Shown here piece by piece: positions 23,042 through 55,078 of a DNA stretch of 64,000 bases (the first letter of the stretch is position 1; every line of letters starts with the position of its first letter). Position numbers and translations under genes: made by a program. Source of the DNA: a virus. Taxonomy: Duplodnaviria; Caudoviricetes. The stretch lies in IMG/VR virus record IMGVR_UViG_3300035492_000236. One strand, written 5' to 3'. Below the pieces are notes generated by a model. That model was not told the origin of the DNA. It worked only from the letters and a program-made list of their open reading frames with translations, and did no database searches.

Positions 23042-24450
23042 ATGGTCAAAATACCACCCGATCAAATCAAAGGTATCGAGTGTAAACATGTGGCATACCA
23101 GCAGTCCATCGACCGCTCGGAAAATGACATGCTACTCGTAAAGGAAGTGGTACACACAAAAGATGGTCAACAGATCCCACGCATTAAGCTGATGGAGAAT
23201 TTCAAGCGGCCAGTTTACGTTACCAAGAAACCTTATCGGAACCACGAAGACAAAAAAGAATACGAAGAAGAAAGTAAACTCGACCGGTACGATTGCACCC
23301 AGGCAGGCATGTCGACCACGCTACAACGGGCATTGGGTTTCAGCGTACCCAATCCCGCGAAGCAGCTGCGTGAGGTGTGTCGCAGTCCTTATATCTACAA
23401 CGCGGACCTGAACTCCACCACCATTGTGAAAGCCGCCTACAAACGTAAATGGCCCGACGTGGTGTCATTGAGTAAGGTGGCTGTACTCGATATCGAGACC
23501 GATGTGTTGTACGGGACTGGTGAGCCTATCATGGTATCAGTGACCATGGGCAAGCATAAAGTCATCGCGTTTGCGGATTGGTGGGCGGCAAAAGTCCACA
23601 ACCTCGAAGGGCGGCTAAAAGAACGGTACGCACACCACCTGTCAGCGGTCACCATCTACGGCAAAAAGAAAGGCACCTACGTTACTCGTAACTTGGTGGA
23701 AGAGACCGGGTCAGACATTACCGTCATTGCGGATTGCAATATTGCTGAAGGTCTTCGTCGGGTGATGGAGTTAGTGCATCAATGGATGCCAGACTTCTTG
23801 GCCATCTGGAACATCGACTTCGACTTACCGCACTTGTTGCGGATGTTAGATAAGTACAACGTCCCGTATGAGGACGTGTTTGTGGATCCGTCAGTACCAC
23901 AACGGTATCGTCGCGTGTGGTATAAGCAAGCCAAAGCCGTGCGCGAGACCAACTCCAAAAGCATTGCCCAACACCCGGCCGACCTTTGGCACGTGTTGTT
24001 TTGTTTGGCAGGCTTCTACACCGTAGATGCCATGGCAGTGTTCAAGAAGATACGGACCGCGTTAGGGAACGAACCGGACTACAAACTGGAAAACGTGTTA
24101 AGGCGACACCTGGGTATTGGTAAACTGCGGATTCCGGAGTGTAAGACCGACCCCGAACAGGGCCTACCCTGGCACGTGGAGATGCAGCGGGATTTCCCGA
24201 TCGATTATGCTGTCTACTGTATGTTCGACTGTATCTCCATCGAACTGCTAGATCAGCGTACCGGCGACTTGGCAGTTACCCTGCCAGTGTTGTGTGGCAT
24301 TAGTGACTTTGCGATTTTCCCTTCACTACCGAAACGGCTGGTAGATAACCTCACCTACTTCTATCGTGACCGTGGTCTGATTCCTGGATGTGTGGGGGCA
24401 GACATCACCACCGACGAAGACGAGGGGGTGATCTCTATGACTCAGTGGAT
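23042..24450 (+). CDS. Split family-B DNA polymerase, exonuclease/motif-A subunit (phiKZ gp82-like), exon 1
   Basis: ExoI VLDIETD, ExoII WNIDFDLPHL, ExoIII YCMFDC. The frame is interrupted at ...SMTQWI by a group I intron; the apparent stop at 24478 lies inside the intron. Confidence 0.85.
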
Positions 24451-24970
24451 AAACTGTATGAAAGCGTGTTTTGCGTAGCGTATTGGTTGCCGTATTGTAA
24501 CCATTGCCGCATTACTCGTTTTCAGTAACAACTGTCCCACCCTCGAGTGATTGGGGGTTGATCGATATCTAATTGCTGGAACATCCTAAAGCTCAAGACG
24601 CGACAACGTGACTCGAAAGGGTGAGCGTGACCGTTGCCGAAAGGCAGAAAAAAGACTTGAGATGCCCTATGCTTAAAGGAGTGCCCGTCGGGAGACGCGC
24701 CGCTAAGGGGTGATATAATGGATGATCAGCAGCCAAGGCTCTGTGGAACGTCGGGAGACGCGCTATGGGCAAGGTTCAACGACTATGGCCTAACTAGCCA
24801 GTACCTGCCAAGCGGCTGGGGAAATGGTATCCGCCTGCGGGTTGTATTCGATACAACAATGCGCAGGATGATAATATAGTCTGGACATCTGGGGAAACCC
24901 CAGAGCAGCGTCGCCGACCGGGAGGTCCGCGATGGCGGTTTGAGGTTAGCGGCCTCAAGCGAACATTTCG
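24451..24970 (+). ncRNA. Group I self-splicing intron (subgroup IA2), 520 nt, no homing endonuclease ORF
   Basis: P element AATTGCTGGAA (24571-81), Q ATCAGCAG (24725-32), R GTTCAACGACTA (24774-85), S AATATAGTCT (24873-82). P3 GATATC(24564-69)/GGTATC(24826-31); P7 GACTA/TAGTC; P8 CCTGCG/CGCAGG; P7.1 and P7.2 hairpins; P9 CTGGG-GAAA-CCCAG. Exon 1 ends in U, the intron ends in G, and splicing restores the frame QW-I-VTLPAH. Confidence 0.92.
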
Positions 24971-25307
24971 TGTAACATTACCTGCCCATATGGTGGAACT
25001 CAATGGTCTTAAATGCGTTGCAGAGATCCCCGAACTCACCACTACATTTCGGGCACAGACTGCTGACGATGATATCACACAGGCTTACCCTACTGGGGAA
25101 GTGATCATGAACGTCTCTAAGGAGACGACCTGTATCGAATTATGTGAGATCGAAGGCGTGTCGGAAGAAGCCCGGCGTCGTCAAGGCATCAACCTCACGG
25201 GTGGCAATACTAACGCCATCGAGATATGTAATGAATTGTTGAACATGCCGTACATCCACGATGTATTGGACGTATTTAAAGCTGACATTGAGGCAGGATT
25301 AGTATGA
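24971..25307 (+). CDS. Split family-B DNA polymerase exonuclease/motif-A subunit, exon 2
   Basis: In frame with exon 1 after splicing (1409+337 nt = 581 aa + stop). Carries PolB motif A variant ADDDITQAYPTG. The ORF track lists it as a separate 105 aa ORF from 24990. Confidence 0.88.
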
Positions 25308-51867: not shown

Positions 51868-52932
51868 ATGATTGAATTCGTCAATAAGCAGTTGGCGCTG
51901 TCGCGAGGAAGGGTCACAGACCCCTCCTTCATAAACATAGCACGTGGTGTAAATAAAAACCACCGTCGCATCCGTGCCCAATACCTGAATAGTTCCATGG
52001 CGGTGAAACCAACCCATGTACTACTTAAACTATTGTCTGGTCTAGCCCTGACGGTCAGCATGACGCCCAGAGACATAGAGCTGCGGGCAGAAGCCTTGAC
52101 CAATCAAATAGCGCAGTCATTACGACTAACGTCCCCGGTCAGTCCCGGCGAGGGGAATATCGGCGACTTCATGGATGCGGGACACACATCGGTCTTGCTC
52201 CACAGCGATCGTTTTGATGCTGACATACCATGGTACAATTTAGAGCCTGTGGTGTTCCGTTACCACACCAATACCAACATTAACTATCTATTGGGGTGTG
52301 GTGATGAAGCCAGTTATGCATTTGTTGAAGTTAACGTGCCGATGTTGGCAATGCAGCTATACCATTGGACCCGTTGGCGCAACGGCGCAGACGTGGATGA
52401 AAGCATCCGTCAGTTCATCACCAAGTATCCACTGTTTAATGCAGTCAAGTCTTACATGGATGTCAGTCTGCTGAATAGACACTACTACCAGCTCACAGAC
52501 GCCGCTATCCCCGAAGACCGAAAGACGCCACAATGGCCCTTCATCAGTCATGAGGATGCGGTTGACAAGTCTGCGCTGAAAGTGGTCAACCAACTTCTAA
52601 CGGGCGGTAAGAGCATAGGACAGACCTTGTACTCCACCGCCGGCTTCTTCACGGAGAGTGCGTTGGATCGGTTTCAGCGACCTAGAGTACCGCGCACTAA
52701 CGCAGTGCGTTGGTGGGATTACGCGACCTTGTTACCAATGCTGCACTACGGACTAACCATATCCAGCATGTCTGGCTACAACGTCAATCAGGGCATACTC
52801 AGCAATATGGATCGCGATTTGGTCGCATTCACAAATACACGCACATTGGATAAAGTGCCAAAGCACCTATCTCTCCATATAATGGGTAACTTTATTGAAC
52901 CAACTCGGGAATTGATTGCGCGACTTCGCTAG
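51868..52932 (+). CDS. Conserved phiKZ-like protein, divergent from chimallin (gp52/53-like by synteny)
   Basis: Start reassigned to MIEFVNKQ (51868); the ORF-track extension to 51343 is antisense to chimallin. The 3' end overlaps the polymerase gene convergently by 41 nt. Confidence 0.7.
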   Translation: MIEFVNKQLALSRGRVTDPSFINIARGVNKNHRRIRAQYLNSSMAVKPTHVLLKLLSGLALTVSMTPRDIELRAEALTNQIAQSLRLTSPVSPGEGNIGDFMDAGHTSVLLHSDRFDADIPWYNLEPVVFRYHTNTNINYLLGCGDEASYAFVEVNVPMLAMQLYHWTRWRNGADVDESIRQFITKYPLFNAVKSYMDVSLLNRHYYQLTDAAIPEDRKTPQWPFISHEDAVDKSALKVVNQLLTGGKSIGQTLYSTAGFFTESALDRFQRPRVPRTNAVRWWDYATLLPMLHYGLTISSMSGYNVNQGILSNMDRDLVAFTNTRTLDKVPKHLSLHIMGNFIEPTRELIARLR

Positions 52933-55078
52933 TGGTCTTTGCATTCAGTCCACCGAAGTAATCCGACACCAACAGTGTTCGGTTTTTGTCGATCATGCAG
53001 ATGTTGAAACACTCCAGCACATGGTAGTACGGCTCCACTGATGCGAAGATAATGCGGCGGAAGTCGGCCACATCCAAGATCTCCTTAGGGATTCCTGTGG
53101 CAGACACCACCGCCTCCGGCAACAGTAAGTTGACAAACGTCCGCTTGGGGTACTTAGCTGACCAGGCCTTAATCCGACTTGCCAGCTCCCGGTCTTTCAT
53201 TTCCGCTATCCATTTATTGATGGCGGTCTTGTTCTCCAGGTTCACGGCGATCTTCACCACGTTGTAAGTTGGGTCGCCTGAGGCACCATACTTGGGACCA
53301 AACGTCTCTGCCCACATTTCATGGTAGAAGTAATTGGATGATTCCGGGATGCTGTACGCCTCCTTGTTTTTGACCTGGCCAGTTTTAAGGTATTGGAATC
53401 CACCATCCACCACATTCTGAACGATGTCCAGTTCGATTTGAGCAATTCGTTCCAGATGAGGAATGATGCGGATCTTGTCACCAGCCATGACTTTAGCACA
53501 CATGTCCTGAATGGTTGTGCGAAACTCCTTCATGATGATGTCAGGGATGTTGGAGGTGCGTAGCGCCACCCCCTTAACTTCCAACTCTGGATCTTCACGC
53601 AGCACGCCCTCTTGGGATGTGATCAACGAGAAATAATGCTTGGCTTTATTGGTCAATGCAAAAGCACTGAACTTAAATTCGTTCTTCATGGAGTAACGGT
53701 GGATGTTGGATTCTTCAACCCCCATGTTCGCTGACATCCGTCCCATCATGTGCGCAATGTTCTGGGTAGCGATGTAAATCATGACGTCTGAGACGTCGTC
53801 GGCCGCTTTGCCGGTCATCTCGCCTGTGTGCCATTCGGCCCATTCCTGCACAGTGGCCATGGTTGAGTCAGTATCTGATACCAGACTCACGCGACGAATG
53901 GTATCGGGCAGTCGAGCAATGGACGCCGGCACGTTGCGTGTGGTGAGTATTTCGCGGATCAGTACATCGTACTCGCGGGTAGCGGACACCACCTGATACG
54001 CCGTGGCTAAGAACTTATGATACCCTGCAACGTCCTTTTTCTTTAGCTCTTTACTATTGCCGTAAGGACCCACCACGTCCGCACGCAGCAGACTACACAG
54101 CGCTACTAAGTCGCCATCCAACAACTTCTCAACTTCCTCCGGGGGCACCGTCAAGGTGTCCTGCGGAGTTACCATTTTTGCGATAAAATTCCGCATGACG
54201 CGGTCGTTGAATTTACGCAGATGGTACAGATCGCCAATGTACACAAACGCGGCCCGTTCCAACGGCTCGATTTTCTCCACCAGGTCGCGAATGGTAGCCA
54301 TGGCCTTTCCGTTACGCCAGAACAGTTTGGTTGAGTACCTAATCACCTCCATGGTTTCTTCTACGGATGGGTAATGGAGATCGTATAGGTCCATACACTG
54401 TTTGAATGCCGCGAAATTGGTCAAGTGTAGGGTGGACAGGATATTATTCACTACAATGCCAGGCAGCCAATAATGACGACTGCCAGCCAGGACTTTTTCG
54501 TTGTTGGCGTTACCATAACTGGTGGCAGAGCGACACGTGGAGGTCAGTGATGAGTGGGTGGATTTATTATACAGAATGGTGTAAGGGGACGAGTGGGCAC
54601 CTGACGCTGCATTGTTCAACGTCTTTACTGAGTTCTGTTCGTTCTTTTTGTTGGCAGCCAACACCTCATCGTTATTAGCAATCGCAGTAAACATCTCCTG
54701 TTTTACTGCGGCCCGCTTAGCGATGTTCTCATCAATGAAAATAGACAACACGGACCGTTTTACAGACGGCGGCAGATAAAACGTCAAAGATGGTGAATTG
54801 ATGATGTTCTTATCATGGACAGTGCGCAGTAGGGTGGCCATATCCACCCTGGTGGCGCGGCGGTCTCCGGTCTCCGGGTCGCGCACGTTCACGTTAGCAA
54901 TCGGAGCTTTAAATTCAAACCGACCGCCTTTCTTGAATTCTTTCTTCAACCACTCTCGCACCACCTCCATTGGCTTGCCGGTGGATTTGTGCAGGTAGAT
55001 GGCAGTTTGTTCCATGTACCCATCAATAACGTTAATCTCGCGCTTGTACTCGTTGATTGGACGCAAAAAGGTGGACAT
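52892..55078 (-). CDS. Split family-B DNA polymerase, catalytic C-terminal subunit (phiKZ gp50-like)
   Basis: 728 aa. Motif B EQNSVKTLNNAASG, motif C VSDTDSTM, KAKHYF, EVKGV. No exonuclease or motif A recognised. Confidence 0.88.
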   Translation of the reverse strand: MSTFLRPINEYKREINVIDGYMEQTAIYLHKSTGKPMEVVREWLKKEFKKGGRFEFKAPIANVNVRDPETGDRRATRVDMATLLRTVHDKNIINSPSLTFYLPPSVKRSVLSIFIDENIAKRAAVKQEMFTAIANNDEVLAANKKNEQNSVKTLNNAASGAHSSPYTILYNKSTHSSLTSTCRSATSYGNANNEKVLAGSRHYWLPGIVVNNILSTLHLTNFAAFKQCMDLYDLHYPSVEETMEVIRYSTKLFWRNGKAMATIRDLVEKIEPLERAAFVYIGDLYHLRKFNDRVMRNFIAKMVTPQDTLTVPPEEVEKLLDGDLVALCSLLRADVVGPYGNSKELKKKDVAGYHKFLATAYQVVSATREYDVLIREILTTRNVPASIARLPDTIRRVSLVSDTDSTMATVQEWAEWHTGEMTGKAADDVSDVMIYIATQNIAHMMGRMSANMGVEESNIHRYSMKNEFKFSAFALTNKAKHYFSLITSQEGVLREDPELEVKGVALRTSNIPDIIMKEFRTTIQDMCAKVMAGDKIRIIPHLERIAQIELDIVQNVVDGGFQYLKTGQVKNKEAYSIPESSNYFYHEMWAETFGPKYGASGDPTYNVVKIAVNLENKTAINKWIAEMKDRELASRIKAWSAKYPKRTFVNLLLPEAVVSATGIPKEILDVADFRRIIFASVEPYYHVLECFNICMIDKNRTLLVSDYFGGLNAKTTSEVAQSIPELVQ

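Follow-up and report, generated by a model that had tools for sequence, protein, structure and literature searches.

The interrupted DNA polymerase gene

The window, that is, the whole stretch of 64,000 nucleotides analyzed here, belongs to a phiKZ-type (Chimalliviridae-like) jumbo phage, whose nearest deposited genome is that of Vibrio phage pVa-21, with the same gene order and 64% amino acid identity over the polymerase. Two open reading frames (ORFs) of 478 aa (23042-24478) and 105 aa (24990-25307), the lengths given in an initial annotation of this DNA, lie on its forward strand, and both match phrog_3011, a PHROG DNA polymerase family of 576 profile positions. Since the first ORF covers positions 4-468 of this profile and the second piece positions 463-568, the two ORFs are pieces of one family. 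Exon 1 (23042..24450, + strand) comprises codons 1-469 and the two first bases of Ile470, as indicated by the phrog_3011 match (E 1e-161), the alignment with contiguous homologues and Foldseek; the 478-aa ORF call overruns this exon by nine codons into the intron, up to a TAG at 24476-78. Exon 2 (24971..25307, + strand), delimited by the match to phrog_3011 positions 463-568 and by the alignment, supplies the third base of Ile470, the residues VTLPAHM..., the putative motif A (DDDITQAYP) and the stop codon. Its reading frame is open from 24972, and the ATG at 24990 is an artefact of the ORF caller, not a real start.

When 24450 is joined to 24971, an uninterrupted frame of 1746 nt results, which encodes a protein of 581 aa reading ...MTQWIVTLPAHM..., in agreement with the single protein containing QWIVTLPAHM that had been proposed from the letters of the sequence. 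This product aligns without gaps with the contiguous polymerases of pVa-21, SPN3US and phiEaH2, and its closest proteins in a collection of 5.8 billion (P0043 and P0044, 82-83% identical) are contiguous through WIVTL and exactly 581 aa long. At the DNA level, one of these two intron-less relatives (L009) reads TGGAT|TGTAACATTA across the junction and is identical to the joined exons over 15 nt, which bears out the predicted junction TGGAT|TGTAAC, at which the frame is restored; read from the sequence, only one in-frame register gives both a U at position -1 and a G at the intron end. W469, T472 and L473 do not vary among 39 aligned homologues, I470 hardly does, and the block into which the intron falls is among the best conserved of the protein. 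The initial annotation regarded homologues naturally divided into two proteins at this point as evidence against an intron; the site is contiguous in at least 264 of the 270 deposited phage genomes that have the polymerase gene, and the gene is a single piece in all 60 sampled rows.

The predicted structure of an intron-less homologue, 82% identical to the restored protein, matches the N-terminal and exonuclease half of the RB69/T4 gp43 polymerase (Foldseek E ~1e-12, roughly 480 columns). The exonuclease motifs expected in the exon 1 product are indeed recognizable, with the Exo I-III residues D150/E152, N257/D261 and Y392/D396 invariant in the 39 homologues. Further downstream, D502, D504, Y509 and P510 are also invariant, and the element D504-x4-Y509-P510 begins 34 codons past the I470 junction. 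The spacing of D504, Y509 and P510 equals that of D411, Y416 and P417 in RB69, as would fit a motif A. AlphaFold modelled residues 1-455 of the intron-less homologue with confidence, but gave pLDDT values of 33-56 over residues 462-550, which contain both the junction and the putative motif A. The earlier placement of the intron upstream of motif A is consistent with the invariant Dx4YP element; its structural side lies in this region of low model confidence. Searches with the polymerase against PDB sequences, and with the 581-aa homologue against Pfam, returned no match.

The remaining polymerase domains, namely the fingers, the palm motif C and the thumb, are assigned to a partner gene of 728 aa on the opposite strand (52892..55078, -), identified by PF20286 ('Divergent Family B DNA polymerase', E 2e-254), PF00136, phrog_2927 and an SDTDS motif. 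Judging from these assignments, besides being interrupted by the intron, the polymerase is naturally split into two genes located 28 kb apart (23042-25307, +; 52892-55078, -). Modelled with low confidence on its own (pLDDT 33-56), the C-terminal part of the first subunit (120 residues) may fold only against this partner.

Detection, extent and class of the intron

The segment between the two exons contains a match to the Rfam group I intron model RF00028 at 24484-24905 (+), which spans the full model (1-253) with 51.4 bits and an E value of 3.9e-10. This Infernal search, which the initial annotation had suggested, exceeds the gathering score of 50 by just 1.4 bits, a narrow margin because long insertions in P5, in L1 and in the P7-P3 interval cost score. 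The match is the sole RNA detected by Rfam in the 64-kb window, under gathering and permissive thresholds alike. Together with the restoration of the frame and the identity of the junction DNA to that of the intron-less L009, it delimits a group I intron of 520 nt without an ORF (24451..24970, +), which starts after U24450 and ends with the omega-G at 24970. The earlier claim that an ORF-less group I intron splits the DNA polymerase gene is upheld by the covariance-model match, by covariation, by contiguous homologues and by the identical junction DNA of the intron-less relative. We consider it very probable that this segment functions as a group I intron of subgroup IA (IA2-like) with no ORF of its own, and that the gene it interrupts encodes the N-terminal, exonuclease and motif-A subunit of the divergent family-B polymerase in an uncultured jumbo phage of the phiKZ type. 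The sequence comparisons show the fold, the two boundaries, the restored frame and the conservation of the split site, while splicing and catalysis are inferred.

The assignment to subgroup IA (IA2-like) is plausible: P7.1 and P7.2, extra helices typical of subgroup IA, are present, as are P9.1 and P9.2. Over the P3-P5 extension region (~24566-24677), the nucleotide identity reaches 72-79% in comparisons with phage introns from Staphylococcus (Twort-like), Enterococcus, Shewanella and Aeromonas.

Megablast with the polymerase gene gave zero matches among deposited phages, no related loci were found in IMG/VR, and exact-pattern scans of viral and metagenome contigs for the P7-P9 repeat found none. 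This stretch occurs in four DNA runs, all of them tar-pit metagenomes, and no RNA run was listed for it. An intron-less allele was absent from the contigs of these four runs, contigs being a form of assembly that loses rare variants.

Ribozyme fold and covariation

The predicted secondary structure was evaluated on a MAFFT alignment of nine related introns, made independently of any structure. In this alignment, 86% of 853 cells form standard pairs and 74 of 107 pairs show two-sided change; in controls in which the 3' partner was slid by 1-3 columns, 33-42% of the cells were paired and 22-30 pairs showed two-sided change, a comparison in which the structure is favoured by having been derived from the polymerase intron itself. 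All assigned helices are fully complementary in the polymerase intron, apart from one U-U mismatch in P7.2, a helix read by eye. This covers P3, P4, P5, P6, P7, P7.1, P8 and P9, which the initial annotation had already listed, and P2, P5a, P9.1 and P9.2, which are assigned here in addition; P7.2, also on that list, is present with its mismatch.

At the 5' side of the core, P2 (24539..24558, +) consists of 6 bp (ACCCUC/GGGGGU) closed by the loop GAGUGAUU; all six pairs are compensatory across the nine introns, and the helix is also found in the loose end of the contig that carries one of the paralogues described below. P3 (24564-69 with 24826-31; 24564..24831, +) is formed by six of six pairs, agrees with RF00028, and encloses P4-P6, the 5' strand of P7, P7.1 and P7.2. 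P4 (24574-79/24726-31), P5 (24583-86/24720-23) and the large P5 extension occupy 24574..24731 (+), on the evidence of complementarity and covariation. Within the extension we recognized P5a (24592-97/24656-61, +), with 54 of 54 cells paired and six of six pairs compensatory, two hairpins with GAAA loops (24611-22 and 24635-46, +), and a distal stem (24664-68/24707-11, +) with a GGGA hairpin at 24686-97. P6, P6a and P6b (24732..24775, +), again assigned by complementarity and covariation, hold the second CGUCGGGAGACG hairpin at 24749-60. The two identical hairpins of this sequence, at 24686-97 and 24749-60, were found as originally described, and the pair is common to the polymerase intron and its paralogue in the virion RNA polymerase beta gene; a third GGGA loop lies at 24920-23.

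The guanosine-binding site is located in P7 (24781..24881, +), where GACUA (24781-85) pairs with UAGUC (24877-81) in a pseudoknot with P3. All 45 of its 45 cells are paired, without variation, in the nine introns, and at the sequence level the segment formed by J6/7 and the P7 5' strand, as well as the 3' strand UAGUC, is invariant in 9/9 aligned introns. P7.1 (24786-89/24797-800) and P7.2 (24804-09/24814-19) follow within 24786..24819 (+), with eight of nine pairs compensatory. P8 and P8a form a long hairpin (24834..24867, +) with 13/13 pairs in this intron, poorly aligned across the relatives. The 3' domain (24888..24958, +) contains P9 (24888-904), P9.1 with P9.1a (24912-37, GGGA loop) and P9.2 (24940-58), with compensatory pairs at 7/7 positions in P9 and 6/6 in P9.2. 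P3 and P8 pair poorly across the alignment of the nine introns, which is probably due to misalignment.

Splice sites and the L1 insertion

The initial annotation could not fold a convincing P1 or internal guide sequence, and on this point our results differ: P1 (24447..24537, +) can be formed by the exon bases GGAU and the intron base A (24447-51) pairing with the guide UGUCC (24533-37), as supported by fold and comparison, with the splice-site wobble provided by U24450-G24534. The guide lies one base 5' of the 6-bp P2 (24539-58), and the element formed by P1 and L1 (24443-24541) folds with -33.5 kcal/mol, a value with a z of -4.7 that none of 200 shuffled sequences equalled. The comparative evidence for P1, drawn from the two paralogous introns (L008) and five same-site introns (L010-L014), is stronger than the fold energy. 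The pattern 'N GUCC C' stands directly 5' of P2 in eight introns, at a fixed distance from that helix and paired with the exon end, and in the paralogue of the beta gene the exon CGAU|G faces the guide C-GUCG at the same position, so that relative to GGAU|A / U-GUCC two positions are changed on both sides. A first guess at the guide, GUUUU at 24468, was dropped, because GUCC at 24534 is conserved in position and covaries. An extension of P1 through a bulged C (A24539 and C24540 with U24446 and G24445) was also rejected, as it clashes with the P2 supported by covariation.

P1 contains just four exon base pairs and closes over an 81-nt insertion in L1 (24452..24532, +), an irregular rod-like hairpin (MFE -28.4 kcal/mol alone) that extends P1 and stacks on it in the fold. 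Across the intron family, L1 measures 8, 8, 16, 24, 81 (the polymerase intron), 91, 939 and 1087 nt, a series that identifies L1 as a variable cargo site and the copy in the window as its ORF-less form.

At the 3' end, G24884 and A24885 in J7/9 (24884..24885, +) form P9.0 with C24969 and U24968, respectively, immediately before the omega-G24970 (24968..24970, +). Both strands are supported by covariation: the combinations GA/UC, GG/CC, AC/GU and GU/AC occur, and P9.0 is fully paired in eight of nine introns, the tail of the paralogue from the beta gene being taken from a loose contig end. The 3' end is, as judged from this comparison, fixed by the 2-bp P9.0 alone. For P10, which had not been foldable in the initial annotation either, the 3' exon UGUAAC offers no pairing with the bases that precede the guide, and none at +1. 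P10 was accordingly rejected as a feature of this intron.

Introns at the same site in other phages

The WI|VTL site is also occupied by group I introns, detected with Rfam, in five other metagenomic phages (L010-L014). Among the 120 polymerase clusters listed, 22-24 are 455-511 aa long. Six such truncated clusters were examined: in five the cut lies at WI|VTL and is due to a group I intron, and in the sixth (L015) it lies near motif A. The five introns at WI|VTL score 35-73 bits with Rfam (E 1e-5 or better), three of them at or above the gathering score of 50. One of them (L013) resides in a phage whose polymerase is only 44% identical to that of the window.

Two of these relatives (L010 and L011), which share 64% polymerase identity with the phage of the window, contain an intron of 1.4-1.5 kb at the same site and in the same phase (TGGAT|T...G|N-GTN-ACN). 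Their L1 carries an HNH endonuclease of 344 aa or 283 aa (phrog_59, E 1e-25), with a mutual identity of 56%, and the ribozyme core lies after the HNH ORF. As first reported, the polymerase intron itself holds no endonuclease ORF: no ORF in it exceeds 94 aa, and the three longest are without a Pfam match. A tblastn search with the HNH endonucleases of L010 and L011 found no homologue in the window or in L008. The presence of an HNH gene in L1 at the same site in two related phages gives indirect support to the idea that the intron has lost its endonuclease, and the polymerase intron is most likely, on the basis of these comparisons, a derivative or relative of the HNH-carrying introns of this site. 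The tree of the introns is poorly resolved.

The tip of the L1 rod (24481-24501) matches a part of the HNH coding sequence of L010 (L010:5042-5060) at 18 of 20 nt (z ~4.7; 0 of 300 shuffles). This patch is single, of low complexity, contains a 2-nt indel and is missing from L011, and it may represent a deletion remnant or a low-complexity coincidence. The similarity of this L1 to those of L013 or L011 is not significant.

Paralogous introns in the same genome

Two further introns of this family interrupt virion RNA polymerase genes elsewhere in this genome, on a contig (L008) reached indirectly, from the pVa-21 gene through P0007. Paralogue A (L008:13031-13428) splits the virion RNA polymerase beta gene at HDD|GKR and scores 39.2 bits with Rfam; it is cut by the contig end. 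Paralogue B (L008:9330-9798) lies in the neighbouring virion RNA polymerase gene and scores 32.2 bits. Both are ORF-less, with lengths of 470 and 469 nt, respectively, and are placed ~120-146 kb upstream of the window; both are below the Rfam gathering score and have P2, P7 and P9 in common with the polymerase intron. The 3' exon of paralogue B (…DGD…) is that of the intron of Vibrio phage 2 TSL-2019. In the same context, we observed that many metagenomic beta homologues (P0008, P0012, P0014, P0015, P0023, P0025 and P0028) measure ~980-1060 aa versus ~1385 aa; ~980-1060 aa is the length expected from a cut at the HDD|GKR site of paralogue A.

The polymerase intron is 72% identical to paralogue A and equally to L013, and this identity is distributed as a mosaic: the sequence resembles paralogue A at 24533-62 (P2) and 24668-712 (distal P5 stems), and L013 at 24773-862 (P7.1 to P8). 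In addition, the 63-nt stretch 24867-24929, from the P7 3' strand through P9.1, has an exact copy elsewhere in the genome. In all four runs this repeat, at a depth of ~2.4x, interrupts the Logan contigs. The mosaic identity and the 63-nt patch suggest recombination or gene conversion between intron copies. A broader scenario, which we put forward tentatively and regard as possible rather than probable, is that one endonuclease-less ribozyme lineage moved between the DNA polymerase gene and the two virion RNA polymerase genes of one nucleus-forming phage with a change of guide from GUCC to GUCG, for instance by reverse splicing, that its copies have been kept alike by gene conversion, and that L1 serves as a landing pad for HNH genes.

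Proposed splicing mechanism and alternative explanations

In the mechanism that we propose, GGAU and the first intron base of the transcript would pair with the guide UGUCC (24533-37) to form P1 atop the 81-nt L1 rod, and a free guanosine bound in the P7 pocket would attack after U24450. The omega-G24970 would then enter the P7 pocket, placed by P9.0 (24884-85 with 24968-69), and the 3'-OH of U24450 would attack after G24970, joining AU to U as the Ile codon and giving the 581-aa ...QWIVTLPAHM... protein. Replication would presumably depend on this splicing, and the intron would be retained because, unless its loss were precise, an invariant stretch of an essential protein would be destroyed.

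Three other explanations were weighed against a functional intron. If the intron were decayed, being unable to splice itself or dependent on a phage or host protein as chaperone, the polymerase subunit would be made poorly or not at all, and the genome would be crippled. Such decay could be read from the Rfam score barely above threshold, the unusually long L1 and the absence of P10, and the runs listed for the stretch are of DNA only; however, the core helices are all intact, with P7 and the J6/7 segment invariant, neither exon shows damage and their identity to intact relatives is 82-83%, the same phage DNA is present at 9-37x contig depth in four runs, and essential virion RNA polymerase genes of this phage contain two further introns of the family. 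We therefore judge decay to be improbable.

Even less credence is given to a genuine split of the gene, in which the 478-aa and 105-aa ORFs would be translated apart and the DNA between them would be an intron-like spacer. The family does already consist of two genes elsewhere and an ATG is available at 24990, but this ATG lies past the conserved VTLPAH residues with no GGAG-type ribosome-binding site visible just upstream, the relatives are contiguous through the invariant W-I-V-T-L block, and the supposed spacer has a full covarying ribozyme fold. An assembly chimera, in which the wrong halves would have been joined across the 63 nt shared exactly with a paralogue, is comparably improbable. 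The break of the Logan contigs of four runs at 24867-24929, at ~2.4x depth, is what such an error could leave behind, yet the contig ending at 24896 has polymerase exon 1 and the contig starting from 24900 has exon 2, the alternative pairing would fuse the polymerase to the virion RNA polymerase beta subunit, and the joined product matches the 581-aa relatives end to end.

Taking the segment as a functional group I intron has several implications. For annotation, two 'hypothetical' ORFs become one 581-aa polymerase subunit, and the same mis-annotation appears to affect Vibrio phage 2 TSL-2019, FishSpeaker, pAEv1810 and Goslar. The invariant W-I-V-T-L block emerges as a recurrent site of group I insertion, occupied in six metagenomic phages and almost no cultured one, and the introns found there constitute a natural series at one site, with an L1 of 8 to 1087 nt and with or without an HNH gene, which is useful for studying the gain and loss of endonucleases. 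In nucleus-forming phages, transcription takes place apart from translation (PMC12908238), and jumbo-phage introns must consequently fold without ribosomes on the upstream exon. Nevertheless, the polymerase intron overturns nothing in current understanding and adds one more selfish element of a well-known type.

Comparison with known systems

Group I introns are already known from DNA polymerase genes of phages and from jumbo phages that form a nucleus (PMC11620839, PMC12908238), and our literature search found no description of an intron at the WI|VTL site of a phiKZ-type polymerase. Polymerase-gene introns are known from the Bacillus phages SPO1, SP82 and phi-e (I-HmuI, I-HmuII) and Bastille (I-BasI), from T7-like phages and from cyanophage Pf-WMP3 (references in PMC11620839 and PMC12908238). 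As in these phages, the window has a group I intron that interrupts a strongly conserved block in the gene of an essential replicative polymerase, and like the introns of SPO1 and Bastille with their HNH endonucleases, the same-site relatives of the polymerase intron carry HNH genes too. The host genes of these known introns are family A polymerases, whereas the host gene in the window is a divergent polymerase of family B and phiKZ type with another insertion site; moreover, the copy in the window is without an endonuclease ORF, and its ORF-bearing relatives hold the ORF in L1.

Closer to the phage studied here, a group I intron has been described in the RNA polymerase beta gene (gp210) of PhiPA3, a nucleus-forming jumbo phage (Birkholz et al. 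2024, PMC11620839). Both phages belong to the same family and have essential polymerase genes interrupted at conserved residues, and in the genome of the window two virion RNA polymerase genes contain introns as well. In PhiPA3, however, the intron is found in an RNA polymerase gene and comes with an HNH gene, while that of the window is found in a DNA polymerase gene and is ORF-less. As a separate observation, RNA polymerase genes of deposited jumbo phages contain group I introns that leave the genes annotated as separate or run-on CDSs, namely in TSL-2019 (MK368614; L004:2945-3356, 51.7 bits), FishSpeaker (Shewanella, OP589283; L005:2419-2788, 72.5 bits) and Aeromonas phage pAEv1810 (NC_070999; L006:2446-2801, Rfam 42.3 bits).

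In the E. coli phage Goslar (MK327938; L016:1735-4514), Goslar_00068 ends prematurely near motif A, and the HNH/NUMOD1 gene Goslar_00069 comes next. The gene family (phrog_3011) is the same and the interrupting element has an HNH gene, and the gene of L015 breaks there too, being interrupted at or next to the putative motif A (L015:2501-3976, …IHNAD|), an interruption in which Rfam gave no match at E <0.01. The Goslar match differs in that it ends at about query residue 502, 32-34 codons downstream of WI|VTL, and in that its element carries an ORF. The polymerase gene has, with L015 and Goslar, a second interruption site at or next to the putative motif A.

The introns of Twort, of Twort-like and Enterococcus phages, and of the T4 genes td, nrdB and sunY belong to subgroup IA2. 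The polymerase intron resembles those of the Twort-like and Enterococcus phages in its nucleotide sequence (72-79% identity in the P3-P5 extension), in possessing P7.1 and P7.2, and in its GNRA-capped peripheral helices, and it differs from the Twort-like and T4 introns in residing in another host gene, in its much longer L1 and in its three GGGA hairpins.
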